Source of the DNA: Phoronis australis
Lineage: Eukaryota; Animalia; Phoronida
Length of the DNA stretch: 64,000 nucleotides
Direction of reading: 5' to 3'
NCBI GenBank assembly: GCA_002633005.1
Contig: NMRA01000249.1
Coordinates: forward strand, 62,001 to 126,000
Below, piece after piece: positions 445 through 32,700 of this stretch (the first letter of the stretch is position 1; the number at the start of each line of letters is the position of its first letter). Under the pieces are notes generated by a model, which searched no databases, was not told the origin of the DNA, and saw only the letters and a list, made by a program, of their open reading frames with translations. The position numbers were made by a program, and so were the translations under genes.

Positions 445-543
445 GTATTCCTCACATCCAGAGCTGTTTACGTGATTGTTTTCAACTTATGCCATGACTT
501 GGAAGACAGGGCCCACACTCAACTCTGGCAGTCCGATGACCAG
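445..543 (+). CDS. ROCO exon 1 (visible): ROC segment after switch II
   Basis: ctccAG|VFLTSRAVYVIVFNLCHDLEDRAHTQLWQSDDQ|GTaagt; phase 0-0; resembles the ROC 'FLtxrAvYxxVf' motif. Confidence 0.88.
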
Positions 544-3500
544 GTAAGTCATATTTCATGTCAATAAACAATGGAGGATGGTCATGCGTTGCTGTAGGAA
601 TTGGGCACTGACGAATTAGAGCATATCCCAGATGGTTTTCAGGTGTTAGATGGGGACTTATTTGTAAGGATAGGTTATTCATGACTGTATGTAATTTATT
701 CGTTATATAACGATATGCTTTCAGAAGCAAATTAATGTAGCATCACGGTTTTGTAGCTTATGTTTTTGTTTTGCAAATAAGCTTGAAACGGCACACCCGC
801 TAAGTGGCTGCCTAGGAAGTTATTTCTTTGGACAGTCAAGTTCAAATGTTGAATTACGGTAAGTTGTAAATGGCTCATGTTCAACTAGATAATAATATTC
901 CGTTGTATAGGCCATGTTCTGCTGCTGCATGGTCATGCAAGTGACTACAGGGTTTTCTTAGGGTTGTTTTAAGAGGGCTTTGTGTCCTCTTTTAGTTTGC
1001 ATTGTAGGTGTCTGATTGCAATCATCTGTCCTCTCCTCTGCCCTCTAAGTTTGTTGGGTTTGTTATTAATAGCTATTTGCTCAAGACATCCAGTCTAAAT
1101 ACTTGTCTGTCACAGTCAGCTGGGTAGTGTGATATGTGACTTTATGGTGACTCAAGACTTCATAAGTGGTTTCTTTTAAGTAGAGTCTCACCTGTATGGA
1201 GCACGTCATTACTTTGTGTGGAAAGGAAAGGTGTGGTTGTTCTTTCCATCTGACGAACCAATCAAAATGCAATCATGATATAAAACACAGAACTTCAATC
1301 ATCTGGTCTGAAGAAATCACTTGCATTAATGGCAATTGATTTCCGTAGAAGAACTGAATGTTCTAGTGAAGTCTGAAGCTGCAGTTGGTGTAATTATGTT
1401 GTATAAAGACTGGGTTGCCCTGTCAGTAGACAATTATGGTTTTTGGTTCTCCTTTCTTCTTATTGATTCTGGGAATGGTTCGTTTGTTATCATTTTATAG
1501 CATGATGTGTACAGGTTTCTAAAACAATCGTATTTTGTGTGGTTGGGTATCCTAGTTTAATGTGTGTCTGAGTTAGTGTGTATAACATTCATCTGTGGCA
1601 TAGGCATGGTTATGATTGGCTAATGTGAATGCACAATCTCAACCTGTGGTCTGGGGTCTGTTTCATGATAAGTGACTTAAGACTTAAAGTCAGAAATTTG
1701 GTCTTACACCACACAAAAATATTTCTGAAAAATAAAATTTGAATATCACTTTAAAGTCTCTGTCAGAAATAACTACTAGTCAGTGACTGTTTAATTTCGG
1801 TAAATTATTTCTAGAGAGTGACACTGTCGTAATTTCTTGGCTAAACCTGTTTTCAGCTATTGGGAAGTGGGAGTGGAAGACTGAACTTCAATGTGAAACA
1901 ATCCCATGATTTCATTATTGTATTTTGTTAAGAAATGTTACCTTTCACACCTAGTAAGTGATTATGCAATAGTAAGCTGTGTAGTTGGGTTGGACTGTGT
2001 GGACGTCTTTAGAGTACTAAATATAGAGCATGTCTTTTAAGATCAGTCTTGCAAGGCCAGACATAATGAAGCGTTGTTCTTTCTACTGTGGGAAGTGAGT
2101 AGACTTCTGTACAGTCGCCATAATCTGTGTGTGCTTTTCACATAAATTATTTACTGCAATTTAACTAGTCTAATGTGTAGTGCTCACGGTGCCTGCCGGA
2201 TGCAAAATATGAAAAACTGTCCTGCAATATTACACGTTGTCCAATATTAGTCTATTTAATGTTGTGATAATCAAGATTTGAAACAAGATCTTCTGGTCCT
2301 GACAATAAATTTCGAGCGCTATAAAATATCACCAATTTCGGAAAAAAATAATTGCAAAATTGTACTTTTTCATTTTTAAGGCTTCTAACATTATTGTGAA
2401 TGCTCAAAATGTTTTCTGTTGTTAGCTACAGTACAGAACTCGGATAAGTATTATTTTGGTACCACGTACATGATTAAAAGAATTGTACTGTTTGTGGAAC
2501 TCACAAATTAAGCTACATCAGATTTGCCTCATGGTTTTCTGTTATTTGTTGAAAGTGGTAAATAAGAGCAAAATGGCTGAGTTTATAACTTGTCCAAATT
2601 ATGCTTCGTGTAATTAAGTAACAAGCACGTTAACCGTTATGTCTTATGTCCGTTACCTGCCCCGCTCCATTACTTCTTCACTTCCCCTTTATTTATTCCC
2701 CTGCAGGGTTCACATATATATTGTCTGCTGTAAGTTGCCATTATCTCTATCCAAAGGTATTGGTCTACACAGTGACATGGCCTGGATCATGAGTCATTAT
2801 AGGTGGTGTTTCTCTTTGCATCCTGTTCATTCCTTTGTGCTTTTCAAATATACTCTTGTCTATAGTTTTCATTGACTATACTCACCTGACAATGGTGCTT
2901 GAAAACTAATTGTCATGAGCGTTTTTATTTTCATTTATTATGTATAACAAGGAAACAAAGCTGTGAAATAGTGAACACCAGTTGACCGGCTCATTATGTA
3001 TGTTTGTTAGAAGTACCCTTGTGCATGACGCTCCTGTACGTGTTTTCAAATATCTGTTTCTCATGCGCACACCCAGGGGGGCTCGGGGGCGGCTCAAACG
3101 AGCCCCTCCTTTTGACGAAGTGGACAAAAAGGTCCGCCTCAGGAAAACATAAAGTCCGAATAAACCAGACAAAAAGTCCTCTAAATAGGCACAAATGCAC
3201 AATTCCGAGCTCTGGACGTGGTACCCCGTTTTTGTTTTTTTTAGTCCTTTGGCTTTTTTGTCGGCAAAAGGTCCACATCGTCGCAAATCCGAGCCCCCCT
3301 TATTAAAGGCTGGGTGCGTGTATGTTTCTAGCTTTGACTGCGCGCTCTTTCTGTTACTTTTTATGGAGGTGGGAATGCACTCACAGAAGACAAGCACGTG
3401 TAAGTTGGATTTTCAATTAGCTCAGACAACATTCCATGCGCCTGCTTCTGCAGATAAGTCGGATTTCACCTGAGTCCATCTTCTACAAGTGTTTATATTT

Positions 3501-6500
3501 TGTTGTTACAGGGCGACTCGTCCACTGAAGAGGAGTTAACTAACCTGGACTACATGGATTATTGGATGAGTTCTATACACGCGCACACGGCACAGAACAC
3601 GCGCAACAGTGTGGACAACACCACACTATCGCCACCAATATTCATCGTGGGAACTCACCGCAATAGTCTGGCATCGGATCCTGACATACTCGAACAAATG
3701 GTAACTTCTCATTGTTTAAAAATTAAAAAAATTCCTGGGCTTTGCACTAGGTATGTTTTTGTTCAGGAGGGTTCTCCTGAAATGTCCCAAAGTTTTGCTA
3801 ACAAATTATTTTCTACTTAAGATAATGACTCAACACTTTCCTTAAACCTGCATAATTCCATTGCAAAATAACGCTGTAGCACGTGCTGCAAAAAGATTGT
3901 TCAGTGCTGCTTATCCAGGTTTTTTGAAATTTGTCAATTTCAAGCTTGATAGAGCACGGCGTCTTTTTCATTTTGGAAACTAAGGCGCATTGAGTTTTGC
4001 CGTTAGGGAACATTTCCAACACTTACTGTAAATTTAAAGTGAATTTCCAGTTGTCTCAACTTAACTACCTTTTCAGCTCAACTAGTCCATTTTAACAGAC
4101 ATCGTTTCTCGCATACTCCTGCTTTTTTGGACTGAATGCAACGAGTGTTGGGGAAAAGCGCTGTGTCGCAACCGAAAACGCTAGCATTAAAAAATGTACA
4201 ACACTAGTATTTGCCCAATTGATACATAAAATTGACAGTCTGCAAAATTTGAAGTTCCTGCCTCTATTGAAAAAAAAATTGGTCAGAGTTTGGATCCTGT
4301 TTCAGGAGAACCATGTTGTATCATTTTTTAAATCTTTGAAGTTACGTGTATTCCTCTGAAGATTCTTTCTTAAAACCTCATGTTCCAGTGCCTCTTTCTA
4401 CCCGTATTTCATGGAGACAATGTTTATTGAATATGGGGACATGGCTATGCATCTAACTCTTTATTTGTAAACTGTGTAGTAAGGTTTAAGGGTACAGTAA
4501 CAATTTTCCTTGTCATTTTTCATTAAATTACCATTTTCTGGTAATTCTAGATAAATTTCAAGTAGATTAAATTCCCTCAAATTCTATTTAACTATGCATG
4601 TGTAACACCAGAAGTGTGTTCAAGAGCGGAATCATTCCCCGCCAGCTTTGTTTCCATGCATTACAAACTGTGTTGTGACATGGACTGCATCAGTGTGTAT
4701 TTCAGCTTGTAACAAGTTTGACCGTTACTCGCCTTTCTCTGAGACCAGTATTCAGTATGCCTAGAAGCTGTTGCATACCCGGATGCAAGCTTCATAAGCG
4801 CCCGAAGAGGAGTATGTTTCACCAATGTCCAATGGTTGACTGGTGGAGTTGGCTTGTTTGTGTCAAGAATGCAGTGTTGCCCATTCATGCCACCAGTAAA
4901 CCAGTCAACTGTGCAGTAAATATATCTTACCATTGGGTTACGAAAAAGGACATGTATGTACACGGTCACGACGGTTAACTGCTAAACATGATCTGAAGAA
5001 AGATGCCATGTCATTGGTATTTACGTTGTTCTCTTCTCCGTCACCACCTGCTGAGAATGCTTTTTTGACACTGGATGCATGGCGAGCTGCAGCGACATTT
5101 TAGTGACTCGAAGCAACAAAGTCTGCGTCACACTAGCATGTGAACAATTACTGCTGCGTATAAGGCTAGCATCCAGTGCATAATGTACATGAGTCACGTG
5201 TTCGTGGTCACCGACCATCAGCCGTTTCCTGTCCTGTGGCTAAATTCCAGCACGGTGGAATGTGACGCTTTAATAAAAGATAAACCAAATTCTTCACTGA
5301 AATCCTTTTGGTAGGTGAATGTGTTCCTGTTGTTTCAGGTTGAAGAGAAGTTTGATCAAATCCGTAGCCATCTGGTGGGAAAGTCATATCAACGACATGT
5401 AGTGAATACATTTTATGCAGTAGAAAATAGTCTAGTCGACTCTGAGGATGAACAAGTAGGTCTTTGAATCTGCAATGGGGTGTCAGTATTTTAGTCCACA
5501 TGAATTTGCTACTGAGGATAATGTGTGACAAATATTGCATTGAGAAAATGTCTTTAGTGAAATAATAATTAGGATGTATTTAATATAATTACATTATGAA
5601 CTCAAAGTGGAACTTGTCCGCTAATTCGTTACCTCTGTGATTCTGTGGTCAAATTAGTTAGAAACGCAACATATAGCGACAATGTGGATGTGAAGTACGT
5701 TGAAAATTGCCAAATGTTTTGTGTCAAAGATGATTCACTGTGTCCAGTAAGCATCGTGACGTGGTGTTCGGGATTATGTGAGCCCCCCAAGGTATGTCAT
5801 TAGTGCAAAGGTCACCTATTTGCAGATTTTTTTTTGTTTTCACATTAAAGAGTTGTCAATGAATACAACTGCACTTTGTTTAGCGCAGGCAGTGTTCAAA
5901 TATTGTCATTTACTTCCTGCCATACATTATAAGCATGCAAATACTTGAGTTATACAAATGCTTTAATGGAGGATTTGTCCGATTTTTATGAGGAACTGGT
6001 CCATGCGTATTTTCAATGTGAACAGTGTGATGACGTGCAAAACCTCTTGGAAATTTCGTCAAAATCTCAAAGCTTGTTGAGGGATTTTGATGAAATTTCC
6101 AAGAGGTTTTGCACATGTCGTCATTCTGAGACGAGTGTAGGATTTGTTTCCTCACACGAACCATAAAAATGATCTTTTTGCTGAAAAACTCAATGTGTCT
6201 AAAACTTTCAACCACTTGTGTAAAAACACGATTGTGCAATGTAATAAGTAATTACTTTTTGTTGAGTAGTTTTATTTTAAACTTAACAATTGTAAATTGC
6301 ATTAGCTTTTGTAACCAAGGCTCAAGTTATAATCTAATAAATAGTCTTTGAAGTTGTAATTTCAAAGCTTAACATATGTTTATAAATAACAGTCAGTAGG
6401 GCTTTCCCCTGTGTGAAAACTGAATTGACCTTGAGACAGCACAGCTTGACAGTCTCACCATGTTTCTTGAGTTGGGGTTTGTCTCCGTTTGAATGATCAT

Positions 6501-9500
6501 GGATATGGAATTTACTGCCAAAGATGGTTCCATTTAAGATTTAAGAAGTTGTTTGCATGTCCTTCTGACTGGGAGTGCGTACAGTTCTGACACTGTTGTC
6601 TGTCATAACCATGTCACCTTCACGGAATTCCGTCGTTGTTTGGTTGGCGCGCCTTTGATTTAGTGTTTTGCAGATGATAAAATGTAAGGCGTATGTATTT
6701 CTTCTTAGCACTACTTTGTGATTCGCCCATGTCATATCAGAAAAAATACGTACTCGGTGTTATTAACCAGCCGTGTCGTAACACATTCTAGGTCATGTGA
6801 GGAAAGCTATACTAATTTCTGAGCAATGAAATTAACAGACATGAACTGGAATGAATTCAGGTTCTGTTGATGTGTTAAATAGCTCATTGTTTACTGGATT
6901 TAGCTTTACTCTGGCAATTTACCTATCGCAAACTCTGCCCCCTCGTGGTTGTAGACAATCAAACAATAAGTTTTACCAGACAATGTGTTGTTTGTCGCGT
7001 AAAATGGAAGTGAAGGTGTGTTCAGAATGATGCGTTCAGATTGGTCAGTTAAACCGTCTCTCAAATTTCTGGCGATAGGTCAATTACTGAAACATGGCTT
7101 ATTGAATCTGAGTTTGTTGTGTATATAAGACGAGTTGAACAAGTAAACTTGAACAGAAACCTGGACAGTTCGTAAGCTTTTTCGCAATTTTAACTTTGAG
7201 ATGATTTTAATATCCGTGTGTTGGGGAAAATGTTTGGAGAAATTTGGAGTGATTAGTGATCACACTATTCTGATGTAAACAGTAGATTACATACAGTGCT
7301 TATGATGTAAAATGCTCCAGGTCAAGGTCAGGTGTGCAGCAGCATATGAATCTTATTTATTATTAAAGGGTGATTGACTGGACTTTGACCTCTGGATTTA
7401 CACTTGTAGCTTAAATGTTTATGACAAGATTGCTATTCATGCATTATTGTCATGGATCAGATATAGTTATTATTGGCATTCTGTGCATGGGCACAGCTCT
7501 GCTTGTTGAGCTTGTCAGTCATTGATTGTCATCACAATCTGCTGTCATATAGAGTCTGTGGCTTGTAAGATCAATAAGTAACTATAATTGTTAATTCATA
7601 GCCAACGACCGACCGGATAGTACATTGCACATAAATAAATGAGCATTGTCCTCACAAGTGTTTGTACACAACTTCTCACTTGACAATGTTTAATTGTGAA
7701 CATTTCTAAGTTGTTGAGAAAAGACTATGCGCATCTGCCATGAATGTCAAAATAGAGAATAATATGAGCAGTGTTTCAGCCAGGGAATAAACATTTGCCT
7801 AAAATCATCCCAGAACAAACACTGACTCAAGAGAAAAACGTGAAACTCGTTCAATGTCTCTAAGACATTAAAAGCAGCTATAAACCCCATTCCATCAAAG
7901 AACTTAATCGTGTCTGTTCATTGCAGGTGGTGAAGCTGAGGCGGCACATTGAGGACGTAGCCAGTAAGCAGCCATACATAGGTGAACAGATGCCTATTAA
8001 GTGGCTCAAGTTTGAACAGGCAGTCGCAAAGCTGGTCGACTCGGGTGTCAATTTCGTCTCCACTGACCAGGTAAAGTCTGCTTGATGCCACTTTTTTGTT
8101 TACTTTTTATTAAAATTCTCACTTAAGATTTCTTCCAAATATACCTAAACTAGCCATTGCAGTGAAAGGCTGTTTACTGATTTAAGTTGGTAGACTTTCA
8201 CCACATTGAATTATGGTTGCGTTGTTTTTGAGAGTCATGTTGCTAAAATATCTTGGCATTAACAGTAACGGATTTATTATTTTAAGTTGTTTTTGAAGCT
8301 GCAGTTATTTAAGAGGAATGCCAGAGAGCTGAATTACTATCTCATGCCGACTAACAAATGCTGGTGTACGCTCACACTGCTAGTGTTCTAAGTGCTTATT
8401 TGATACGGGTGTTATTGAGCCCAACACTGACTGCTGCCAACATACAAAGTTTCATTGTTAGGTGTTAGTTCTGCACATCGTTACTCCGTTTAGATGTTTA
8501 AGCATAGTGTGTCGTGTTATGTCAGTAGGATAAAAATCTCTCGCAGATCCGTGAAGTGGCCAGTGAGGAAGGTATTTGTAAAGAGGAAGAGCTTTGTACA
8601 ATGTTAGAATTCTACCACGACCTGGGCGTTGTGATTTGGTACGGCAACTCGGGCACGCTAGATAGTGTTCTACAGAATACAGTCATACTGCAGCCCAAGT
8701 GGCTGGTGGATATGTTTAAAACTGTCATCACAGTCAAGGATTTGGACCAACAGGTAAGGTAGTGTTGGTAGGTCTTCTAATACACTGTCTTTGGGATATT
8801 CCTTCTTAGAAGCTGCGACCATCATTCACGTGGTATGAAATTCACTGGCGGCATGTGTTGTATTTGCTCAATCATTGAGTTGAGTTTAGAGTGATTGTTT
8901 TTTGTATTAGATAGACTTGCAAGGTATGTTGTTAAGATTTTGACAAAATAAGTGGATCATCACCTATCGAGACTATGTCCAGACTTAGCTCAAATGGAAA
9001 CATTATCTAGTAAAAAGTGAATCTTTTGTAGGGCTTTTGTGCATCAGCACCATCAAATTTTAATGTTGTCTTGTACATTTTGAAAGCTGCTGCATTGGTT
9101 CTGTGTTAGCTTACTAGGTAAAGAAGCAGAAAGGTGAATAAATACCAATTACTACGAAATTGTAAAGTTTGAGTGCTTTATTGAAAATGTTGGCGCTTTT
9201 GATATACAGACATTTTGTATTAACTTTTAGTTTGCACTGCTATTTGTCTCGAGAGAAAAACCTGTATTGTGAATTGTTACTGAGTGAGATAAATGCTTTG
9301 GTATTTAGAGACAGTACCATTGAGAATCGGTTCTTGAACTTGATATCCTATCTTTTCCAGTGGGCTGCTTACATGGATTCCTGGAACAGGTTAGACAAAG
9401 AGGCGATCCTGGAGGAGCGACTAGTTGACCACCTGTGGAGAGACATTCCCAATGAGAGGCCTGCTCTGCTGGGACTCATGGAAAAGTTTGACCTGATCTG

Positions 9501-12500
9501 TATTCGTCTTCCACCTACGCATGTGAGTGGGAAGTGTACCTTACTGCCAACAGCTCAAGTCTGCGGCGTCCATATAGTGACCAAATATTGACCACCAAGG
9601 ATCTGTTTACCTTTGCAAGAACATATTGAAAAAATATAGACTTTTGACGCTAAATGGGTATCAGTAGAGTTTCCTTTCCACGGTATATTAGAATCAAAAA
9701 CAATTCATGGCACTCGGGGTCTAACACTAATTTATTCTGATTAATTCTGAAAAAAGTTGGTATTTGCAAGCTCTCGCTTCCTGAAAACAAAACTAATGAT
9801 TCCTATTGATGTAGACATGAGTGAAATTAGTGGGTATGTTACTTCTGCTGATGGGCTCTATATTGGAAATTGTTCTATAATCTTACTAAGTGAAAGTTGC
9901 ATTTTTGCAACCTCTTGGGTCAGTTTTGTCATTTTGTGTTCACTGACAGACAAAACATTCTCGAAGTTTTAACGATGCATTTCTCCCTGTTTAGGGAAAG
10001 ACGGTTGCAAGCCACTTGAGCTCATAAAATTGATTTCATCATAAACCTCGTCATGATAGAATTTGATTTCTCTTACCAGCCACGACATTGGAACCATCGG
10101 CAACTCAAGAAAACGATTCAGAGTCTATTAGGGTTGGCCAACCCTAAAATTGCAAATTCAAAAATTGTTAATGTACACATTTGCCTTTGACTTAAGTTGT
10201 AAAGGGAAATAGAATCCTATCATGGTAAGGAATACGAGACTGTTTTATGAGTGGGGAGTTAAATGTCTAATTGGTACTTAAGCTAGCTAAACAGGATGAA
10301 ATTCTGCTTGTAGTCGTCATTGACGGTCACTGATAGTCACTGGCAGATATGGCCTATGGCCTATAACATCTTAATGTTATTTATGATTAGCGTTAACATA
10401 TTATTAATCTTTTTACTCATCTCGCTGGCCGTCCATCGTGGTTACAACATGGTGGTAGTATTTGCTACATCCATATGGTGTTATTTTTCCAGTTAAAAGA
10501 CACAGCGGACTATGCACAGAACAGTTATTATGTGCCAGCCAGGCTCAAGGCACAGCCGCCCAGTGAGAGTAGATATACCAGCAGACCCAATGATGTTGTG
10601 TTCTATTTATGTTTTAATGGATTCCTGCCCGGTGGGTGATCGTCTTTTGCTAATAGAATTGAAAGTTTAATTGCGTGTACATAGGCCTCCTGTTGACAGT
10701 TAACCATGTGCTATGTTGAATGTAGTTGCTTCTGCGGTTGCATTTTGGTATTAAGGAGTGTTAAGAAGGGTGGATGCCAAGGCTGTTTGAAATATACCAC
10801 AGCATACCTGTAGTGTTGGCTTCATTGGTGACATTGCCATTGTTTTACCGTGAGCTGTGCGTTTAGGAAAGAAACCTGTCAATTTGGGAGCTCTAAATTA
10901 AACTGCAAGTTGTCTAAAGTGTCATTGTCATACATGTCAGTCTAGACGAAACGGATTCTTTTAAAAAACGAATATTTAGAGCTATAATCAATTCCCGTGT
11001 TTTTAGCATAGCATTTACAAATGTACTGTACACCACGTTGCAATCCAGTTAAGCGATCTTATGGATTTTTGTCTTTAAATATGGATGTTTACAGAGATGA
11101 TGCAGGTGGGGACCTAAGGGACTTGACGTGTGTGCATTGTGTCTCAGAATTCCTCATGTTTAGTACAGATAAAGCATTCTGAACTGAAAAGCTCATATTG
11201 CTTTATTGACTTCAGGAATTTCACAATAATGCCAATTTTCTAAAATCTTGTGAATGGGAAGAAGCGTTTACCTTATTTGACGGTACAAAACAATCAAGTG
11301 GTATTTTTCATGCGCTATGGCTGACAATTTTGGATTCTGCAGCATCCGTAACTGGCTGAAACTAATTGGTAACGTTTCAGACATTTGAGTTGCATCACTT
11401 TTTGCACTGATATGGCATCATACCGTGCATCGTCAGTTCCTGTGCACTCGATTTCAAGGGTTTATTTTTGCAATGGATGCGGTCTCTGTGTATTCTGATT
11501 GAAGATGAGATCCACGAACCAGTCGAAGTTCATCAAAGCTATTGGACGAGATCAAAGTCACAAGACTGATACTTATTCTGACATCATTCAGTTGTTTCGT
11601 CCATAGTATGGTGACCATCTGAATACTTACATGTGTACTTGTTACAGAGGGTCTGTTCCACCGTCTTCTTGTCCGTGGTGTTCGCTGGTCTCAGGAGAAT
11701 GGCAGTACTGAGCCTCAGTTGTATTACAGACATGCCAGATTCTTCTTGGACAACGAACATGACTTCATGCTTGACATGGCCCCCATAAAGGATGCCAGGA
11801 TAAAGGTAAATGGTGTTGTGCATTGTGCTGGAGTCGTGGGTGAGAATGTGGATGAGGGAATGTTTGGCGCTTGCCCCTAGTCATAATATTATGTTTGGGT
11901 TTGGAATTTGACCTGTTCAGACGCTGTTATTGCTCGAAACCAGGCTCAAGATGTTCCACACGAACCAGTGATTCCTTTAATGCAGCGTCTATGTCCTCTA
12001 GCAACAGTCAGTTCATCTGAAGCTCACAAGTCTCTGATTACGTACTAAGTACACTATGTAGCAACACTGGCATTGCATCGTCACACTTCACTTAGCCATT
12101 GTTGAACAGTGCTGACCTCATGCATTATTAATCAATCTCATCCAGTGGATGAATTTAGAAGTTTTACGCAACCCAGTCCTGGTCACTATAATACATGTGT
12201 TGAATAAATGTTTATTTTTCTTTAGGTCACCATTCTTCGTGTAGCTGTACTGGGTGATGCTAACGATGATACACACAGTGTGTCGTCGATGGATAGGCTT
12301 GCGCAAACACCGCCAAACCCTTCCGCATGTGCCAAGGTAATAGCCAGTTGATGTGACAGAAAAAGACTCTGCCAACCTATTTTCACACAACTATGGCATG
12401 TTCCTCTAAGCGACAGGTCTACTATTTTGGCTGCTCTATTTTGGCAGGCACCTTTCTTTATGCTAAATGGTTAGAAAAGTCATGTCGAAATTTTCATGAT

Positions 12501-15500
12501 GGTGTTTCTATGTAGGCCAAAACCTGACAGATTTTGATTTTTGGACATTTTTACTAACTACTACTCCTCCCAGTGACTTGTGTGTTTGCTTCAATCAGTT
12601 TCTACCAAAGATCGATGAAGGATATTCGTGAAATTTGACAGATTAGGTTTTATCTATGAGAAAGAAACACTTGCTCATTTTTAAACTAGGTCGTGCCCCT
12701 TCTGGGAATTTTATCAGATAAGATTTTGCTCTCTGCCAGGCAATTTGAAGAAAACTGTTTGCAAATGAATGTGTGCTAAATTCAAGGTGGTAGTGACTGG
12801 CTTTGAATATTGGATGGATCCGGCGGCTGCAATGCCCTCTTGTGGGGATTTCAGTATCTCTTAGTGGCAAGTTTGCATCCTTTTTGTAAATCTTAATATT
12901 GCATTAAGTTTGCCAATTTCTGGATGACTGGCACAGTGACTGCAGCCAGTAGATCAATTTTAAGTTCACTGGTGTTACCCTTGTTCATGGGATGTTAAAA
13001 CAAACAATAGCACGCTTACTATATTTGCCATTTGTGGTGGAGGTGGTGGGCATGAATCAGTGATTTTAATTAGGAAGTAGTAGTACAAAGATGAGTCTCA
13101 ATAATGACTTATTTAATACACAGTGCAGATTCACTGTTTGAGAAACATGGCTTATGCTTGAAATTTTAAAAGAACGATTTAATGCCCGTTTCAATGGATT
13201 CCTTATCTGGCGTAAAGATTAGTTGAGCATGAATTTGCAATAAATATCTGCATCAGTGTGATCCACTGAAAGTGATCTTAAACGGTCTTGGTCTGGTATT
13301 TGCTTTCAATTGGCTCACTCCCCAAACATAGGGCATTTGCATGACAAATGAAAGTAGTGCCAAATACCATTACCTTTAATGGACTTGGCTAACCTCTCCA
13401 GAATTGGGCTTTTCAAAGTCAACCGCAGGTGACTCTTCAGTTCAACTAATTGCTACCATGGCATCTAGGGAACCTGTTACAAAGCTGGAAGAGATAATTT
13501 TGTGATTTTGATGGCCAGGTGCTTAGGTCATCAAGCAAAATGAACCATTTCTAACACTTTCCATTTTAAAAAGGGAATTTCCACTCATTCCCTTTTTGTG
13601 CCTGAAAAGTTGCAGATTTTTTCTGCGCCTGGATTTCCATCATTTTGGCTTAAAAATTGATATATTCCATTGCTTTTCAGAAAATTCTGCGTAGAATTCC
13701 ACCGCAGAAATTTCTGCGCAGTAAAATCCCTGCGCTGGAATTTTGCGCAAAAAAGTGTGCGCTGGAATTCTGCGCAGAAATTTCTGCGCATTAAAATTCC
13801 TGCGCTGGAATTTTGTGCAAAAAAGTGTGCGCTGGAATTCTGCGCAGAAATTTCTGCACTAGAATTCTGCGCAGAAATTTCTGTGTCGCAATTTTGCTGC
13901 GCAGAAATTTCTGCGCTGGAATTCTATGCAGAAATTTCTGCACTGGACTTTTGCTGCACAGAAATTTCTGCGCTGAACTTTTGCTGCGCAGGAATTTCTG
14001 AGCAACAGAATTTCAGTGCAGAGATTTCTGCGCAGCAGAATTCCAGCGCAGAAATTTCTGCACATGATACAACAGAGGGCTGAAATGCAATGGAATATAT
14101 CAATTTTTAAGCCAAAATGATGGAAATCCAGGCGCAGAAAAAATCTGCAACTTTTCAGGCACAAAAAGGGAATGAGTGGAAATTCCCTTTTTAAAATGGA
14201 AAGTGTTTTCTCTTACTGAAACATTGATTCAGTGTCACACAGTGATCTATCGATTTTTGATTTTCGGTTTCTAGTGTTTTTATTACAGCCTTTTTCCCTT
14301 ACTGTGGGAAAATATACTAGTAAGTTATATTAACTGTCAGGAATTTGTGTTGAACTGATGATTTGTTTGAATTGTGTTCATTTTCTCTATGTTTTGGAAG
14401 TTGGATAAAAGCAGAAGGCACTCTAAATTGTTAGATTTCAGTTTACTTGTTACGACTTCAAGATTGGATCAAATTGTTATACAGCCAAAGCAATTCATGT
14501 CACTATTTTGCTATTTTAAAAACAAGAACACAGATGTGTTGATCTAAAGCTGCTGCGTCGATATATGAATTATAAAATGCTTCTTTAAATGCCGTCATAG
14601 TCTTCAACCTTTTGCCGAATTACTGTAACTTTGGATAAGTAAGGTGCCCTTCATTTCAGGTGAGAAATTTTCTGGACTCTGTGCTTTCTGACCTGCGTAC
14701 CATGTGGGTACATAGAATCTCTTACCAAGCTAAAGTAGAGTGCTGTTGTGAGAAGAGTTTAACGCACGGCCTTCACTTCCTGGATCTCGATGAGTGCCTG
14801 TCCAGTAAGGTAAGACAGTTGGACTGGAATCTGTGGTCAGTGAAGGGACAGTGCGGTGTCAATATGCCCCTCAACTTGTGAGCAAGTTTGAAAAGACGTC
14901 TTGGCTCAATAAAGGCAGTGAAAGTGCGCTGACGTGGGATGTTGAAGCCCCCATGCTGTGCCACCTTTAAAAATCATCGTTTGGGTCTGTGTTTTGTAGT
15001 GGTTTGTTCATTTTTATACAGCCAGTTAGCGTTTCTAATTATACGTCACTCCGTCTTTGTAAAACCGTGGACACGGAATGATGTTTGTTCATTGTTTCAA
15101 CTTGAGGATTCATTGCCGCTAACTAAAGTTAGTTGGTATGGAATAATAGCTCAGCGTTCGGAGTGCCCGGTCGGTATTTGGAGATCGTTAGATTTCTGTG
15201 TCTGGTCAGGCGAGTTTCTTTCATAGCAGATAACGCCAATGTATTTAGGATTTACACAAACTTGCTAAAGTGAGAACTTACTTCCTAACTACTGTTATGT
15301 TGCCTGTGCTTGTTCAGCTTCATTGCATTTAATTGCCTGGAAAACCTTCATTGGCACACACAAGTGGATTACATCTTTATCTTACTTTCAGGTGGTTCTT
15401 TGCGATCACAGACGAATAAAGACAACCACTTACTGCAGTTGGTTCCCAGCTCCTGTTGTTAAAAGTAAGTAACCTATTTCACGAAATTAATGTTTTAAAA

Positions 15501-18500
15501 TGTCTGAAACTGCAGTTTCTAAAATGTGAAATATGCGCGTGTGTGATTATTTGGGGTCTCCCTTAATTGTTACTGGCCCATTTTTCTGCTTCCATAATCC
15601 ATCACGTTTACTTAGAACATTCCATCTCAATATCGCTAACCTACATCCCTTCTTCATCCTCCTCTATGAGCCAGTCCACGAGAGGTCCCTCTTCTCTGAC
15701 TCTGCGCACCTGAAAATCACCACCTCAGTGTAATAACTGAGATTCACTTTTCATCATCGCTGTCAATGTCACTCTGTATTTCAGCCAATGAGGGTCCTAT
15801 CTTCTCTGACACACTAATCGAGCAGCTGGACTTAGAACACTCTGTCAACATCGAGAGATCTGCTACAGACATGCCAGTCTGGACTAAGAGTGCTGCCAAG
15901 TTACTGAATGGTGGCTCAGATGGACAAGACTGGACAGCTCTGGCCAAGAGGCTTGGTAAGAAATTATAGTAGATAGCCAAGGTGTGGTTATTTAGTTTTG
16001 CCCTTGGTCAACCTCAGGTGTAAAGTGTATTTGCGGTTAAAAGTTGTGCCTTGTTTTTGTTTTTAAAGAGTTCCTGATAACAAGCATGTTGTTAGTGTTT
16101 TTATTGAAAAGACTCACTGAAACACAAACTCAAACTCTTTTGCCGTCCTGTTTACAGGTTATAAGAAGAATAAAATTGAGAAGCTGGGTGAGGACCTGAA
16201 CCCTGCGCTGGCACTGATCGCTGATTGGATCATACTGAGTGGTAACACGCCTCTCTCTGTGGACATGATAGTCTCGTACCTGGAGCAGATGCACAGGGAC
16301 GATATTATTGAGATTATTCAGAAGGGACAAGGTATGGAGACATGGAGTATGGATCGAAGAAGTGTCTCATGAATATTGGGTTAGAGATTAGGGACCCATT
16401 GTGTCAAAGGTTGTAACTTCCGAATGTTGCAGATTCACATTGAGGGTCACAAATGTAGTGTGCTGTTTTCTACAAAAACAAAGCATTGTAGCCTGGTTTT
16501 GGATTGTAGATGACTGATGTCGAATCCCCCTTCCCATAATTTAATTAATAAAGCAGTGTCTTGTAAAACGAATACTCATCATTCTTAGCTTCTGAGCATT
16601 CCACGTTTGATAAGAAGTGCACTTGAACTTGTTAAATCCTCTAGGGGTCGCTTGTCGTTAGTCAATTGATGCCGTGTAGTTTCACTGGCCATGAATTTTA
16701 AGATTCATTAAATGTGGCAGTGCACCCGGAAGAAGGTTAAATCTTATGAACACAATAAATTCATAATGATATAGTCTGGAGCTAATAAGAATTTTACAAG
16801 GCAGCCACGCAGCCTTTTTGGTAACAAAGTGGTGACTGGTATTGACACTTAATGTGGATGGTGTTACTAGTTAATGGCAAGCATTAGAACTTTACACTGA
16901 CAGACTACGGTATATTTCCTCTGAAATTCAGCAGTCTCAGTCATTGAAGCAATAACACCACCCTTCACTAGGCACACTTGACTGTCAATTACAATCACAT
17001 CACCTTGAGATAACAGTCCCCTCTTGATATCTAGGCCTGTGGTTTAATCTTTATACCTGAAATCAATCTCAAACTTACTTTATGCATTTATCATAGATCT
17101 GATTCTACTTTAATGCAGAATCCAGATAAGTATCTATCATTCCGTACTGTGGTGCCTTATGGTTTATGCTGGTTAGTTTGTAGTCCGAGTTTGCATTTGG
17201 TGACCCCAGCATTAAAGCCATGTGTTCGAGTGTGACCTCAAAATCCCAAGTTTTTACTCAAGTTTGTAGCTCAAGCGAACTTGCAATAAAAATTCACCTG
17301 CATAAACCAGAATGTGCTAGAACCCATAATTAGACACTTATATGGAGTCTGCTCAAAAGATGAATGGGAATGTCAAAAACAATTGGTAACAAGTTTGATT
17401 TTGATTAAAAATATTAGATCTCAGTCTCTGATGTTTTATCAGTTTCCAAGTTTTGTCCTTTCTGTAACTGCTCGAGGTCAATGAACGGTGATACACGACT
17501 TGGAGTCAGCTTATCCTAAGTTTCAAGTCTGACATTTTAAGTTACATTGTTCACTGTGATGTGCAAATGCAATATCGTAATGGTCACCGTAACAGCCTTT
17601 GGCCTCAGAAAGACTAGCCATCGCTCAGAGATGGGGACACACTGTTTGCATCACTGCAGTTCATCCCCTGTTGTACTCATTGTTCCGTTTATGTCACTAC
17701 TGAAGTGGACACCCTTGTAATCCTTTACACAGAGTCGGAGGCTGAACCTCCCCAGGTGTTCATCAGCTACCAGTGGGATGCCCAAGATAAAGTGCGACAG
17801 ACACGGGACAGGTTGGAGAGAGCTGGCTACACCTGCTGGATGGACATTGGTCAGATGGGTGGTGGTGACCAGCTGTATTCCAAGATTGACGAGGGTATTA
17901 GGAAAGCCAAGGTAACTAGTGATTAGGATGCCAACTCTGTGTTACATACCTGGCTGTTGGGGAGATGTCTTAACTTACATCAGGTTTAATATTTAGCACC
18001 TACTCTATTTGGTCTTGGCGTCAAACACCACAAGTAGGGAGAAAAATGTGGTACACGTAAGATTTGTGGCAAAAGTAATGTCAGTGACATTACGAACATA
18101 CCAGCTCACTGACCACCATCTCGCGTAATGGAGCACAGAACTGGGCATGTGATCAATCTTGTTGACTGGCATTGTGGTCCATTAATGGAACACCAGTTTC
18201 GTTATAATTTGGGGTTCAATTGCATCAATCATTTTAGGCAAATTGTATGTTTACGATCACAATAATATCTCAAAATGTAGTTTTCTAGCTGTGAGGTGAG
18301 AACACGATTGTCGCATAACAGTGACAGTGTATTGGACCAGTTGTTGTACATGGTTGTTGATTACGTCTCTTTGAAAGTTAGGGAATTATTTAATGGTCAG
18401 AATAAATTGATGTCATGCCTCAGGAAGCAACTCTCACTTGACTAATCATTTACCCACACTAGCTTCTAAATTCTGATTATTAATTGTCACCCAGTTCCAT

Positions 18501-19662
18501 ATAACAATGTTTCCACTATCGCCAACAGGTGGTGCTGGCATGTATAACACCCAAGTACATCGTCTCCCATCACTGTCACAGAGAGCTAAGCCTTGCCGAT
18601 CTCCTCCGTAAACCCATAATTCCTATTATGTACAAGAAAGTTCCCTGGCCTCCTCCAGGTGGCATGGCACTCACGTTGTCACAGCTGGTCTATATCAACA
18701 TGAAGGGTAAGGAATAATTCTTGAAATTTTGTCTGGTTGTGAAAGTACTCAATCATACAGCTTTGAATTATTTCTGAATTTTTGAATGCATGTTTATGAA
18801 GGTCTCGAAAATCAAGGAAAAAACAATCTTACTGTTTGCCATCCTAGCAGTAATTTTGATAACTGTAGGATGTACATTTTCCTAAATTTCCAAATGCAGT
18901 ACTGGGCATGTTGATGGAAACTTGCACAAATTTAGTTGTAAAAAACGTATGACCTTTTGAACAATAATTATATTATACTTTGTATTGAATTTGGTATCTT
19001 ACAATATGAAGCAATTAAGATTACAATGAATATGCTAGGTCTTGGAAAAAATGATCTAATCAGTGAAATTCTTATGTGTAAATCGTAGAATTAGTAATAA
19101 TGTTTGCTATGAAATTTTGTCAACAAGGCTTTACTCCCTGTACTATGGAATCCTCTGATTTCATTTTCTGTTCTTATAAGGATCAAGAAAAAATTCCTTT
19201 TTACGTAAAATTTAGTATCTTTGGTATACGATCTCAGAGATGCAGATTGAAGTATGTCATGTTAATTCTTGTCTAGGGGTTGGAGGTCATGGTGGGTCAG
19301 GAATCCACGCCGACCTCGCAGAACGATACAACGAAATCCTCCAACGTGTGTCGAGGTATGCCACACCGAGCCAGTCAGTGAAAGCAGAGAGTAATCCGTC
19401 CTTGAAAATCTCTGAGAAATTCCACACGGGGTCCGATAGTACGCTAGACGACACATCGTCCAACTATGACACGACACCGGAGCCACCCGTATTCCAAGAG
19501 TTGTTATCCCTTCAGCATGCCTTGCCAGCCAGTCTTCGTACAGCAGAGAACGTGAACGTGAACCGAGCCATTAGACCCCAGCCTCCAGCCGAAGTGACTC
19601 GTAGCGTGACCCGCGTGGAGCAAGTTCACGTGACCAAGTGTGCGGTCTGCACTATACTATAG
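445..19662 (+). CDS. ROCO-family protein, ROC-COR-Death-TIR-CaaX (5'-partial; 16 exons; 878 aa visible)
   Basis: Exons 445-543, 3512-3700, 5339-5455, 7927-8070, 8547-8753, 9361-9522, 10493-10631, 11648-11805, 12226-12336, 14660-14809, 15392-15464, 15785-15955, 16158-16331, 17733-17911, 18529-18706, 19277-19662. All have AG/GT boundaries with compatible phases and sum to 2637 nt (879 codons including TAG). Motifs: ROC (FLTSRAVYVIVFNL, PIFIVGTH), COR (PIKWLKFE, FYHDLGVV, LQPKWL, YYVPARL, GFLPEGLFHRLL), Death, TIR (VFISYQW, WMD, CHRE). Confidence 0.9.
3062..3324. mobile_element. MITE, CATG...(C/T)ATG termini, 5-bp TSD
   Basis: TIR catgcgcacaccca / tgggtgcgtgtatg; TTTCT on both flanks; related inverted copy at 34745-34979. 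Confidence 0.75.
3512..3700 (+). CDS. ROCO exon 2: ROC with G4 motif
   Basis: ttacAG|GDSSTEEELTNLDYMDYWMSSIHAH...SPPIFIVGTHRNSLASDPDILEQM|GTaact; phase 0-0. Confidence 0.92.
4757..5022 (+). pseudogene. Decayed THAP zinc-finger fragment (transposon-derived) in a ROCO intron
   Basis: MPRSCCIPGC...FHQCP...W...; after frameshifts, LCSK and LKKDAM..VF resemble the THAP CSxHF and AVPTIF motifs. Confidence 0.6.
5339..5455 (+). CDS. ROCO exon 3: ROC G5 region
   Basis: tttcAG|VEEKFDQIRSHLVGKSYQRHVVNTFYAVENSLVDSEDEQ|GTaggt; phase 0-0. Confidence 0.85.
7927..8070 (+). CDS. ROCO exon 4: ROC-COR junction
   Basis: ttgcAG|VVKLRRHIEDVASKQPYIGEQMPIKWLKFEQAVAKLVDSGVNFVSTDQ|GTaaag. Confidence 0.92.
8547..8753 (+). 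CDS. ROCO exon 5: COR-A
   Basis: cgcAG|IREVASEEGI...MLEFYHDLGVVIWYG...VILQPKWLVDMFKTVITVKDLDQQ|GTaagg. Confidence 0.93.
9361..9522 (+). CDS. ROCO exon 6: COR
   Basis: ttccAG|WAAYMDSWNRLDKEAILEERLVDHLW...LLGLMEKFDLICIRLPPTH|GTgagt. Confidence 0.92.
10493..10631 (+). CDS. ROCO exon 7: COR (YYVPARL...FNGFLP)
   Basis: ttccAG|LKDTADYAQNSYYVPARLKAQ...VFYLCFNGFLP+g|GTgggt; phase 0-1. Confidence 0.9.
11648..11805 (+). CDS. ROCO exon 8: COR-B
   Basis: ttacAG|(E)GLFHRLLVRGVRWSQENGSTEPQLYYRHARFFLDNEHDFMLDMAPIKDARIK|GTaaat; phase 1-0. Confidence 0.92.
12226..12336 (+). CDS. ROCO exon 9: COR-B
   Basis: ctttAG|VTILRVAVLGDANDDTHSVSSMDRLAQTPPNPSACAK|GTaata; phase 0-0. Confidence 0.85.
13553..14207. mobile_element. 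Foldback-type non-autonomous element with 128-bp TIRs and an internal tandem array
   Basis: 13553-13680 is the reverse complement of 14080-14207 with one mismatch; the interior is about 27-bp units such as gcgctggaattctgcgcagaaatttct. Confidence 0.9.
14660..14809 (+). CDS. ROCO exon 10: end of COR, Cys/His cluster
   Basis: tttcAG|VRNFLDSVLSDLRTMWVHRISYQAKVECCCEKSLTHGLHFLDLDECLSSK|GTaaga. Confidence 0.88.
15392..15464 (+). CDS. ROCO exon 11: end of Cys/His cluster
   Basis: tttcAG|VVLCDHRRIKTTTYCSWFPAPVVK+a|GTaagt; phase 0-1. Confidence 0.85.
15785..15955 (+). CDS. ROCO exon 12: linker and start of Death domain
   Basis: tttcAG|(T)NEGPIFSDTLIEQ...SAAKLLNGGSDGQDWTALAKRL+g|GTaaga; 'DWxxLAxxLG' Death-domain signature; phase 1-1. 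Confidence 0.9.
16158..16331 (+). CDS. ROCO exon 13: Death domain core
   Basis: ttacAG|(G)YKKNKIEKLGEDLNPALALIADWIILSGNTPLSVDMIVSYLEQMHRDDIIEIIQKGQ+g|GTatgg; phase 1-1. Confidence 0.9.
17733..17911 (+). CDS. ROCO exon 14: TIR N-terminal half
   Basis: acacAG|(E)SEAEPPQVFISYQWDAQDKVRQTRDRLERAGYTCWMDIGQMGGGDQLYSKIDEGIRKAK|GTaact; TIR_2-type FISY/WMD motifs. Confidence 0.94.
18529..18706 (+). CDS. ROCO exon 15: TIR C-terminal half with catalytic-position Glu
   Basis: aacAG|VVLACITPKYIVSHHCHRELSLADLLRKPIIPIMYKKVPWPPPGGMALTLSQLVYINMK+g|GTaagg. Confidence 0.94.
19277..19662 (+). CDS. ROCO exon 16 (last coding): TIR helix E, low-complexity tail, CaaX box
   Basis: gtctAG|(G)VGGHGGSGIHADLAERYNEILQRV...VEQVHVTKCAVCTIL*; TAG at 19660-19662. 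Confidence 0.88.
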
Positions 19663-26615: not shown

Positions 26616-26835
26616 ATAATACAGTGGCCACCTAGCTAGGCCCAGCAACAAGTAATGAAGCACAGATACAGTCAGTTACAGGGAGTGACAATGAACTATA
26701 CCAACAATGACAACCTGTGGTGTGTCAGTTGCCTATTGAGATTGGGCTTGCACCAACTGATATGTAAAGCCTCACGAATTTTAAGCTCCTTTGTTGTTAC
26801 TGCCTGGTCTATTATTGCAAAGTCATTGAAAGAGC

Positions 26836-27549
26836 NNNNNNNNNNNNNNNNNNNNNNNNNNNNNNNNNNNNNNNNNNNNNNNNNNNNNNNNNNNNNNNNN
26901 NNNNNNNNNNNNNNNNNNNNNNNNNNNNNNNNNNNNNNNNNNNNNNNNNNNNNNNNNNNNNNNNNNNNNNNNNNNNNNNNNNNNNNNNNNNNNNNNNNNN
27001 NNNNNNNNNNNNNNNNNNNNNNNNNNNNNNNNNNNNNNNNNNNNNNNNNNNNNNNNNNNNNNNNNNNNNNNNNNNNNNNNNNNNNNNNNNNNNNNNNNNN
27101 NNNNNNNNNNNNNNNNNNNNNNNNNNNNNNNNNNNNNNNNNNNNNNNNNNNNNNNNNNNNNNNNNNNNNNNNNNNNNNNNNNNNNNNNNNNNNNNNNNNN
27201 NNNNNNNNNNNNNNNNNNNNNNNNNNNNNNNNNNNNNNNNNNNNNNNNNNNNNNNNNNNNNNNNNNNNNNNNNNNNNNNNNNNNNNNNNNNNNNNNNNNN
27301 NNNNNNNNNNNNNNNNNNNNNNNNNNNNNNNNNNNNNNNNNNNNNNNNNNNNNNNNNNNNNNNNNNNNNNNNNNNNNNNNNNNNNNNNNNNNNNNNNNNN
27401 NNNNNNNNNNNNNNNNNNNNNNNNNNNNNNNNNNNNNNNNNNNNNNNNNNNNNNNNNNNNNNNNNNNNNNNNNNNNNNNNNNNNNNNNNNNNNNNNNNNN
27501 NNNNNNNNNNNNNNNNNNNNNNNNNNNNNNNNNNNNNNNNNNNNNNNNN
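26836..27549. other. Assembly gap (N run)
   Basis: Run of N characters. Confidence 0.99.
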
Positions 27550-27871
27550 CTGTTCGCCATTTGAAAACCAGGACCAAGGAACATCTAAATTCTGACAGTA
27601 ATTCACATGTAAATATTCACCTGCAGAGCTCCAATCATTGTTATCAGCAGTGCTCTTTCAATGACTTTGCAATAATAGACCAGGCAGTAACAACAAAGGA
27701 GCTTAAAATTCGTGAGGCTTTACATATCAGTTGGTGCAAGCCCAATCTCAATAGGCAACTGACACACCACAGGTTGTCATTGTTGGTATAGTTCATTGTC
27801 ACTCCCTGTAACTGACTGTATCTGTGCTTCATTACTTGTTGCTGGGCCTAGCTAGGTGGCCACTGTATTAT

Positions 27872-29706: not shown

Positions 29707-32700
29707 CTGAGATTATTGCGGGATGGGGTATCGGATAGACTTTTTGAGCTCATTATTTTTTACCAGAGCTTTAAGACAACACAATCCAATTCATGTGATT
29801 TCATTGCAAATCGCAAATTCTGGCCGTTATCTGCAAATCGATGAAACCAAGGCTGGATCATGGAGTGTTTCAGCATTTAAAGGAGATTGCCAGCCAAAAA
29901 GAACCTATTTTGTATCAATTTAGATCGAGTAGTTCTACTCGATAAGGTGACGTTCGGTTGCGTTACCTGACACATGACAGCAGACAGGGCCGTTGAAATT
30001 ATCCAATGACATCATTGGTTTCACGCGCAGTCTGTTCAGCAGTTAACAACACGGTTTATTGGTGTCAGCTTTTCGCTTGAATTCATCGTTTAACACCAAT
30101 AAAAATACATCGAACTCATTTAAAAACGTGTTGTTTTATTTCGCTGTTCGGGATTTATTGGTCTTTGGACACACCGTAGCCTACAAATTTCGGCAGGCCA
30201 ATTTACCAAGGTCCGTAGCAAGAGTTTGGGGTCTGTTCGGAGATAAATTCGAAGTATTCTTCCGTGAAATACAGACAGGAGAACCTAGATCTGTGTTGTT
30301 TACACTTGTATTTTTTTGAGTTCTAAACACACAACACGCTTGTGGCTCGGAACCCGATCAGGCCCGTCGCGGCCGCCGGGACTGGCACGAACATAAACCA
30401 GCTTGAATTGGAAGCTAAATCTCCAGTGACGAAAAGACGATAATAGTGTGCCAAAGAATTAATTTTGCCGTAATTATTTATGTGAATTAGCCACGAAACT
30501 GAAAAGCTACTGACTTGTCGGCGGCCGTGCAGTCGGGTTCCCCTTCCACAGACCGTCAGGGCAAAGGTTTTACAGTAACGATGATTTGATTAATCTATTT
30601 GTGTATTTCTAAATAAAGATTACCCTAACATGTGACCATAACATATAAAATCGAGTAATTGTTTCACAACAGCTTTCTGTCAGCAAACACTGAATTAGCA
30701 TGCGCTCACACGGTCTCGGTGCACGTCAATTACCTTTATTGCCGGCATCAAAACCCGGTAACGCAGTGCTTTATTCATTGCTGGCTTCTTACCATTTACA
30801 CCCACGAATACTGCAAAGGTATCACAAATTGTATCTAATGAGACAGACTTTGTTTCAGTTTTATATAAGCATTGGTTAGGATGAGAATAATTCATTTTGA
30901 AAAAGAACACAGACTAATGAACGCCTACATGGCAACTCGCCCGGCGCCAATCCCGACTTAGTCAAGAGCTCATCAGACGAAGACTTCACGGGTCGGATCG
31001 TTAAGTTTCACAGGCTATCAGTTCGAATCGGAATACACTGATCAAGAAATACTAGAGAGGCGCCGTGAACATGCACAGGCAGCGGAACGATTGGATTGTT
31101 CTTTGGTAAGCCGGAAATCGTCAGAGAAATCACTGTCGACGAAATGCCGGCCTCATACTTGCTGTACACAGCGTACCTTTCATTCTTCACTACCGCGAGC
31201 CACTTCCTAAGCATTTCGGGCTCTCGAGGAAGTCGAAAAAACGATATACCCGCTTTCTTCGCAGCTTCATATTTCGGGCAAGCAGGAACGATGCATTGCA
31301 ATATAGCGGCATTCACTCTGCAGACGAACCACTGACGTCGCTGTGTACTTTCTCACCTTCCTCACAGATTAACGCGACACCTCTCGGCAAGGTGAGGTCA
31401 ACCATATAAGAGGCAGTGTGGATATAGACCGATTAAGACGGTAAAAAGACTAATTAAATCGGGTGGCATTCTCCTTTAAATACGTTTAAAATATTCTGCT
31501 ATTCAACGGACGAGACTTTGGCTCAGCGGCCGAGCGTTTGTCTACTTACTTGTCGCTCTCATAATCCAGTTCGCTTGTGCTCCACCGCAGTACTCATCTG
31601 ATCCTGTACACTTTTTGAGACAGTCGGCCGAAGTACCATACTTGCCGAACGTGTCACCGCAGAAACAGTGACTTCCGTTCTGGACACCTGCATAACCATA
31701 ACCTCTGTCACTAGAATGCAACAGGGACAGGTTAACAACTCATAAGTAGGAGTTCCTGAAATTTGTTCCTCACTTTGGATCAGGTGCTACGCAGTGATGC
31801 TGTTACAGTGGCGGATCTAGGATATCACAAGGGGGGGCAACATTTTGTCCGGCTGTAAGCATTTGCGCAAACTGAACAACAATTGTAGATGCGCATAGCA
31901 CCGAATGGGGGGAGGTCGGGAGGGGGGGTTTGCCCCCCTCCCGCCCAGGGAATTTTCTGTTTTTACCTCTAAAAATCAAGCATTTTCCTTGATTCCTGAA
32001 GTATTATCCAAGAAAAAAAGGCAAAAAAAAACGGAGAACGTGTCAAACAGGTAAAACTGCAAATATAAAAAATTCGAACTCATGACCCGGCGATTAGAGC
32101 GCGCTTGCATAACCACTACACCACCACGGCTTAACTACTAACGTCATACTAAAAGACCTACTTGTTTATGGTCCACAGCGTTTGCGCGCGAAACCTACTT
32201 CTTTTTGTAATGCTTATTACACGTTTTATATTTTGTGCCATCAATTTTTAACAAATTTGTCGCATTTAAAATAGTCTTCAAATGCCCAAAAGACCAAATC
32301 CGTTTTTCGTGTTGGCAATAATGACGGGATTGCTTTGGAAATCGTCTTAAGATAAGGTTTGACAAAGAGAGTATTGCGAGTTTCTGAGTGATTTACTAAG
32401 GCTTCGATTAAAATTCACATCTTACCAGCAGCTTCTGTTTTTTCATCGTCACTCAGGTTCCATTTTCTTTAAAAAAATGAAGTAAATTTTCTTCATTGCA
32501 CAGTGGAGCAGACGACGGAAACGGAGTCGTAGTGCGCAGCGCCACTGCCGGTCGCCTGGGATAGTGCGGGAGATCCGATAGTTAGCCACAGTTCCGTTAC
32601 GAATGCGCCGTGTTCAGAATTTGACACTTGAAATTGGATTTGAGCCTCCCCCCAACACTAAAACTGCACATATTTAAATGTTTTTTCATCCGTATAATTT

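Follow-up and report, generated by a model that had tools for sequence, protein, structure and literature searches.

A Neuralized-Roco-Death-TIR gene of Phoronis australis whose TIR domain keeps the catalytic glutamate of NAD+-cleaving TIRs and lacks their WxxxE tryptophan

The Phoronis gene described here encodes a protein of the Neuralized-ROC-COR-Death-TIR-CaaX type, and its TIR domain combines the glutamate of NAD+-cleaving TIRs with a histidine where such enzymes have the tryptophan of the WxxxE motif. We suspect that the domain provides the output of a Roco GTPase as a latent NAD+ hydrolase, activated by clustering and releasing mostly linear ADP-ribose and nicotinamide. On the sequence comparisons we give this reading a chance that comes near to even without quite reaching it. 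The gene occupies the beginning of the window, by which we mean the whole 64,000-nucleotide stretch of contig NMRA01000249.1 that was analysed.

It is an intron-rich animal gene on the plus strand, and RNA shows it to be spliced and expressed. Sixteen exons, all bounded by AG and GT, join into an open frame of 878 residues that runs from the middle of the ROC domain to a stop after KCAVCTIL, and Neuralized-Roc-COR-Death-TIR_2 orthologs map colinearly onto positions 442 to 19659 in tblastn. RNA reads cross at least seven of the 15 joints, among those listed, including 9522/10493, 12336/14660, 14809/15392 and 15464/15785 in the ROC/COR part; an eighth is seen as loose read ends only, those at 17731 matching the end of exon 16158-16331. 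Both joints within the TIR part are GT..AG and are crossed by 5, 8 and 18 reads and by 5, 7 and 12 reads in three stranded RNA runs from one study, and a contig from a fourth run also shows both. RNA depth in the TIR introns is zero, with reads on exons only, and first mates lie on the minus strand, which fits plus-strand RNA in most stranded libraries. The coordinates of the features are given in Table 1.

Table 1. Features of the Phoronis gene, in positions of the window
Feature	Position	Strand	Evidence
C-terminal half of ROC GTPase domain, G4 motif IVGTHRN	exons 445-543, 3512-3700, 5339-5455	+	ortholog tblastn, open spliced model, RNA joint 5455/7927
End of ROC and COR domain	8 exons: 7927-8070, 8547-8753, 9361-9522, 10493-10631, 11648-11805, 12226-12336, 14660-14809, 15392-15464	+	Pfam COR-A, RNA joints
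Death domain	exons 15785-15955, 16158-16331	+	Pfam Death E=8e-4 on one exon, under cut-off
TIR exon 1: strand A, helix A, strand B, BB loop, helix B	17733..17911	+	Pfam, spliced model, RNA, alignment
TIR exon 2: strand C, helix C (SHHCHREL), strand D, PWPP loop, helix D, strand E	18529..18706	+	Pfam, spliced model, ortholog model, RNA
His706, at the WxxxE Trp site (SARM1 W638, AbTir W204)	18571..18573	+	ungapped against AbTir
Glu710 (GAG), equivalent of SARM1 E642 / AbTir E208	18583..18585	+	sequence alignments
Trp731 of the PWPP loop, aligned with adenine-binding SARM1 W662	18646..18648	+	99.3% of 407 domains covering the site
EE loop GVGGHGGSG, first Gly split by an intron; His755 at 19288-19290	19277..19302	+	RNA joint
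TIR helix E, variable tail, C-x-x-CaaL box (KCAVCTIL), stop	19303..19662	+	spliced model, orthologs

The tandem of ROC and COR that defines Roco proteins is seen in the COR-A match on a window exon (47 bits at 8529-8759), in Roc and COR-A matches on orthologs and in the colinear tblastn alignment. Pfam Death scores above its cut-off in all three Roco-type orthologs scanned. To judge from the orthologs, which supply the 5' part of the full domain order, the Neuralized domain and the P-loop (found in 46 of 50 orthologs), together with the WDFxG motif, probably lie upstream of the window.

In the ROC exon at 3512-3700 the G4 motif reads THRN, with Asn in place of Asp; orthologs have Asn in 28 of 50 cases and Asp in 13 of 50. 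An Asp-to-Asn change at G4 of Ras-like GTPases shifts specificity towards xanthine nucleotides, so that nucleotide handling in the Neuralized-Roco family may be unusual.

Several other elements share the window. Intronic dispersed repeats at about 1300-3300, 5600-7300 and 10000-10670 attract many partly matching reads on both strands and lie outside the transcript, and a further intronic region (13678-14061) consists of units of 16-97 bases repeated in tandem and is rich in CTGCGCAGAAATT. On the minus strand, a THAP zinc-finger fragment at 31011-31352 probably derives from a DNA transposon, and exon-sized open reading frames between 38422 and 63351, with four WSC domains, one Methyltransf_FA and one SUEL lectin domain, indicate at least one neighbouring carbohydrate-binding gene. 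An assembly gap lies at about 26830-27560, and the window contains 715 N.

Searches with TIR exon 1 led to two invertebrate families, Death-TIR-TIR proteins and Neuralized-Roc-COR-Death-TIR_2 proteins. Sequence comparison makes the Phoronis gene an ortholog within the latter, which appears to be conserved, CaaX box included, from placozoans to amphioxus. The Phoronis protein is 46-62% identical to 50 orthologs, and up to 79% in the TIR. Its best named matches are from oweniid and alvinellid annelids and a nemertean (56-60% identity), and others occur in molluscs, echinoderms, hemichordates, amphioxus, chelicerates, a centipede and a flatworm; the Saccoglossus ortholog is named 'neuralized PATS1'. 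The architecture is already known from surveys, having been noted for Strigamia and Crassostrea (PMC5094078), and in the accessible sections of these surveys neither the GGHGG loop, nor the CaaX box, nor the absence of Trp from helix C is brought up. A clam expression table lists a 'neuralized PATS1' transcript as down-regulated in parasite lesions. Our literature search, which had subscription papers outside its scope, found no bench or functional study of the Neuralized-ROC-COR-Death-TIR family.

The first-pass annotation of this DNA, made from the letters alone, had placed a TIR_2 domain at 17733..18706. All the motifs it quoted are recovered once introns are removed, VFISYQW to IDEGIRKAK in the first TIR exon and SHHCHREL in the second. 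The range itself takes in these two exons and stops too early, as GVGGHGGSG runs over the joint into exon 19277-19662. The TIR_2 match stands, with 46.7 bits for exon 1 (Pfam PF13676, cut-off 28) and 27.4, just under the cut-off, for exon 2; the Lineus ortholog (P0087) scores 92.2 for TIR_2 versus 24.2 for TIR (PF01582). An AlphaFold2 model of the Lineus TIR (pLDDT 79.7) has the TIR fold and is about equally near Hydra TRR-2, SPARTA, SARM1, RUN1 and MyD88 (Z 16.0-17.1; Hydra TRR-2 17.1, SARM1 16.6, MyD88 16.0), a comparison that does not separate enzymes from scaffolds. We also rejected the fold search as a ranking of SARM1 above scaffolds: Foldseek placed SARM1 first with plant, bacterial and TLR TIRs within a tenfold E-value, and the top VIA Z scores were tied. 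TIR exon 2 by itself found nothing beyond chance matches among solved structures, and a predicted complex of four TIR copies with NAD (score 0.26, mark 0.32) was counted neither for nor against any reading.

The further description of the domain as SARM1/bacterial-like does not hold. In the accessible part of a recent TIR atlas, SARM1 falls in clade 8, where it stands separate from every other animal TIR; clades 9-13 contain eukaryotic proteins only and are described as uncharacterised (10.64898/2026.04.30.722052). All four Neuralized-containing entries of its supplementary table (Strigamia, Calanus, Octopus and Trichoplax, with Roc-COR-Death-TIR) are assigned to clade 13, along with Death-TIR-TIR proteins and amoebozoan, CRuMs and choanoflagellate proteins; the Strigamia protein was recovered in our homolog search with a TIR of the family type. 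According to the same source, Pfam TIR_2 matches nearly every clade, including the scaffold MAL of clade 1, and is of no use for subtyping. The Phoronis TIR is preceded by ROC-COR-Death and not by the ARM-SAM-SAM of SARM1, and its orthologs are placed neither in clade 8 nor in clade 1, where MyD88 adaptors belong. By sequence, the domain belongs to a eukaryotic TIR group other than that of SARM1. Multi-TIR proteins of Leptolyngbya and Parabeggiatoa are distant matches at about 30% identity, and a remote bacterial likeness exists at the level of sequence that is not special to SARM1.

The glutamate itself is kept, as had been claimed. Glu710 aligns with SARM1 E642 and AbTir E208 (equivalence by sequence alignment, with numbers counted from the printed chains) and lies within helix C (helix 74-85) of the ortholog model. 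The orthologs from Mytilus (P0107) and from Lineus (P0087, whose TIR is 79% identical to that of Phoronis) align with AbTir without a gap from strand B to the Glu, which lands on E208; in the alignment to SARM1, which has two insertions of four residues on the way, the Glu falls on E642. We aligned 495 TIR domains from 297 of 311 proteins, 414 of them at least 40% identical to the window TIR. All 48 Roco-type TIRs that span this position have the Glu, as do 412 of the 414 related domains (56 of 57 after thinning to less than 70% identity) and 68 of the 81 more distant domains (below 40% identity).

The earlier caution that this Glu is necessary and not sufficient is well founded, and taken alone it is weak evidence of enzyme activity. 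Human TLR1, with SEWCHYE, is closer to the enzyme motif than the Phoronis protein. Dictyostelium TirB and TirD keep the Glu and do not cleave NAD+ (10.64898/2026.04.30.722052, accessible part), the TIRs of TLR4 and MyD88 are reported to be inactive (review PMC7282519), and 40 of 110 TIRs were active in the available account of one screen (10.1101/2022.05.07.491051). The Glu column is also one of 14 near-invariant columns, and its conservation may be structural.

These columns, conserved at 99% or more among 114, include S643, Y644, W667, D669, G676, L679, S704, C707, E710 and W731, the alignment equivalents being S567, Y568, D594, F603, E642 and W662 in SARM1 and G174, L177 and E208 in AbTir. 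In the window model, F641 (17759), S643, Y644, D669 (17843), G676 and I683 lie in TIR exon 1. The counterparts of SARM1 F565, Y568, D594 and W662 and of AbTir G174 are kept in the pocket, and D594, F603, L607 and W662 of SARM1 and G174 of AbTir are needed for activity (10.1101/2024.11.19.624255 and the accessible parts of PMC8635717 and 10.1101/2022.05.07.491051), although in one study the W662A change in SARM1 had no more than a modest effect. The closest solved TIRs by sequence are bacterial TIRs (AbTir, E=2e-8) and SARM1 (6e-4), and the sole TLR among the matches listed is chicken TLR15 (0.09). Conservation within the protein is highest in the TIR (mean 0.78 versus 0.60-0.69 for the other domains), and 15 of the 17 coding differences listed in reads are silent, with none in helix C. 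We take the near-invariant Glu, the pocket and this conservation as the main support for an NAD+ hydrolase.

Other pocket residues speak against it. SARM1 R569, which binds the diphosphate (10.1101/2024.11.19.624255), is replaced by Gln, and AbTir S176, R178, K202 and Y207 are absent as well. The pocket rim is conserved in a form unlike that of tested TIRs, with Gln645 at 96.5%, Trp646 at 98.8% (399 of 404) and Gln649 at 99.3%. It is conceivable that the Tyr-Gln-Trp AA loop, the Trp-less helix C and the GGHGG loop are adaptations to another substrate or product, such as base exchange or a non-NAD nucleotide, but we consider this very improbable.

The first-pass annotation did not remark on the replacement of the WxxxE tryptophan by histidine, four residues before the Glu. 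Among the 414 related domains, the site holds Trp in 3, any of W, Y or F in 8, His in 23 and Asn in 330; the Roco family has His in 20, Leu in 16 and nine residue types among 48. In the accessible account of one study, every one of the 12 cyclising TIRs tested has W, Y or F at this position, and its mutation moves the product to ADPR (10.1101/2022.05.07.491051). There, AbTir W204A and SARM1 W638A are lowered in activity and not abolished, whereas L6 W131A and ROQ1 W82A are inactive. We regard the first pair as favourable to a Trp-less hydrolase and the second as unfavourable.

The same comparison bears on the claim that the output could be NAD+ depletion or cyclic-ADPR-type messengers. Its first half remains plausible, and its second is weakened, since the W, Y or F that all 12 tested cyclases carry, and that marks cADPR-isomer cyclase TIRs such as AbTir, AaTir, ThsB and plant TNLs, is replaced by His here. 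A signalling cyclase making cADPR, 2'cADPR or 3'cADPR would be in keeping with the retained Glu and pocket. Histidine has a ring and might allow weak stacking, the clade-specific Trp646 in the AA loop could conceivably take the place of the lost Trp, and AbTir W204A still gives 24% cyclic product (10.1101/2022.05.07.491051, available part). Against this, the Trp site varies freely within the Roco family and is therefore not under the constraint that a cyclase would impose. Cyclic messengers are thus unlikely.

The Gly-rich loop had been singled out as an extra feature, and it proves to be specific to the family. In the ortholog model it sits between strand E and helix E, with pLDDT below 50. 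Of 50 Roco orthologs, 48 carry GGHG[GS], against 2 of 138 other proteins. By domain it is found in 72 of 495, in Roco-type TIRs; all 72 keep the Glu, 63 of 72 end in CaaX, and all 72 have a Gly three residues on (G-G-H-G-x-x-G), a position outside the GGHG[GS] selection. A quick tree of 100 of the 481 usable domains plus that of the window, built without SARM1, MyD88 and TLRs and with loop columns included, gives the GGHG group 100% support, which is partly circular because the loop columns define the label. From the alignment, GGHGG is the EE-loop signature of the Roco branch. The EE loop of SARM1 mediates its two-stranded assembly and is needed for activity (10.1101/2024.11.19.624255; PMC8635717, accessible part), so that by parallel a role of the GGHGG loop in assembly is a reasonable inference. 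We considered His755 as a counterpart of SARM1 H685 and rejected it: both are in the EE loop, but His755 lies several residues further from strand E, in a loop that the model does not resolve.

The protein ends in CTIL followed by a stop, with the CaaX Cys at 19648-19650, and a Cys at -4 is present in 47 of 50 orthologs. The C-x-x-CaaL end (19639-19662) is kept even though the preceding 90 residues are the most variable of the protein (mean conservation 0.31). A CaaX end is also frequent in the sister Death-TIR-TIR proteins, which suggests a membrane compartment shared by both families.

If the Phoronis TIR is an NAD+ hydrolase, we suspect that the CaaL box is geranylgeranylated and the upstream Cys possibly palmitoylated, which would hold the protein on a membrane, and that the ROC-COR nucleotide cycle and the Death domain gather several TIRs there. 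A head-to-tail contact between BB loop and EE surface would complete the active site, with Glu710 contributed by one subunit and Trp731 by the next, and the GGHGG loop may shape this contact. Prenylation, GTPase control and Death-domain clustering are proposed here on the strength of the motifs and of what is generally known about CaaX and Roco proteins.

The main rival is that the TIR is a scaffold and not an enzyme. The protein would then resemble MyD88, as an adaptor anchored to the membrane and gated by its GTPase that seeds TIR and Death assemblies, possibly with sister Death-TIR-TIR-CaaX proteins as partners, and the Glu would be kept for structural reasons. We consider this a serious possibility, if one that falls short of an even chance. 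The MyD88 scaffold likewise has its Death domain beside the TIR, the comparison of folds is indecisive, and an Aplysia Roco-Death-TIR protein is listed as MyD88-like in the available part of one survey (PMC9334734). The loss of the Trp across the clade, the missing R569 and the existence of inactive TIRs with the Glu all fit such a scaffold. So do the sister TIRs, about 45-60% identical to those of the Roco family, and the CaaX ends of 111 of 138 non-Roco proteins. However, ortholog placement puts the TIR outside the clade 1 of MyD88 and TLRs; MyD88 and MAL have Gln at the site where relatives of the Phoronis TIR keep Glu at 99.5%; and both residues of the two-subunit pocket, Glu710 and Trp731, are near-invariant.

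Common model organisms encode only TIRs of clades 1, 4 and 8, and clades 10-13, although widespread in eukaryotes, have therefore gone unstudied, according to the available atlas text (10.64898/2026.04.30.722052). From this perspective, it is possible, if less likely than not, that animals have in clade 13 another family of NAD+-cleaving TIR enzymes, independent of SARM1 and working without the WxxxE Trp. The Phoronis protein would then join such an enzyme to a Roco GTPase switch, a Death domain and a lipid anchor, as a GTP-gated, membrane-bound NAD+ consumer kept in most invertebrate phyla, with the invariant GGHGG loop in its composite active site. As a bare observation on sequence, a TIR_2 domain with the Glu is ordinary. 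The Phoronis gene is of interest as a clean test case: its splicing is confirmed, its single TIR is highly conserved with an invariant Glu, the Trp is missing by nature, and the loop is peculiar to the family. If the protein cleaves NAD+, animals would have a TIR enzyme that is not related to SARM1, and NAD+ cleavage would be the output of a Roco protein; if it is inactive, near-total conservation of the Glu does not predict activity.

Among known systems, the closest are the 'neuralized PATS1' orthologs, which have the same domain order over the modelled part and show no difference in kind. The Death-TIR-TIR-CaaX sister family has clade 13 TIRs with the Glu (242 of 244 domains) and without the Trp, a Death domain and often a CaaX box; it differs in that the TIR is doubled, ROC-COR and the GGHGG loop are missing, and the Trp site is occupied by Asn (241 of 244). 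One of its members, from a sea urchin, is named 'MyD88-like protein L1'. The Death-TIR module is also found behind other fronts, LSM14-FDF-YjeF_N (EDC3-like) in one protein (P0222) and LRRs in another (P0261), through domain shuffling or gene-model fusion.

Of the TIRs with solved structures, the bacterial AbTir, BtTir and PdTIR match best by sequence (E 2e-8 to 8e-7); they align without a gap from strand B through the Glu and have in common with the Phoronis TIR the GDxL-x3-IDxG of BB loop and helix B. In contrast to them, the Phoronis TIR does not keep W204, S176, R178, K202 and Y207, and it belongs to a eukaryotic clade, an intron-rich gene and a Roco context. SARM1 shares the TIR fold (Z 16.6, 133 aligned, rmsd 2.6) and equivalents of F565, S567, Y568, D594, E642 and W662. 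However, at about 20% identity to SARM1, the Phoronis protein is without ARM and SAM domains, W638, R569, R570 and the CC-loop insertion, and it has a long Gly-rich EE loop where SARM1 has SHEY. MyD88 resembles it in the order of Death and TIR and in fold (Z 16.0), and differs in its Gln at the catalytic site and its place in clade 1, whereas the Phoronis protein adds a Neuralized domain, ROC-COR and a CaaX box.
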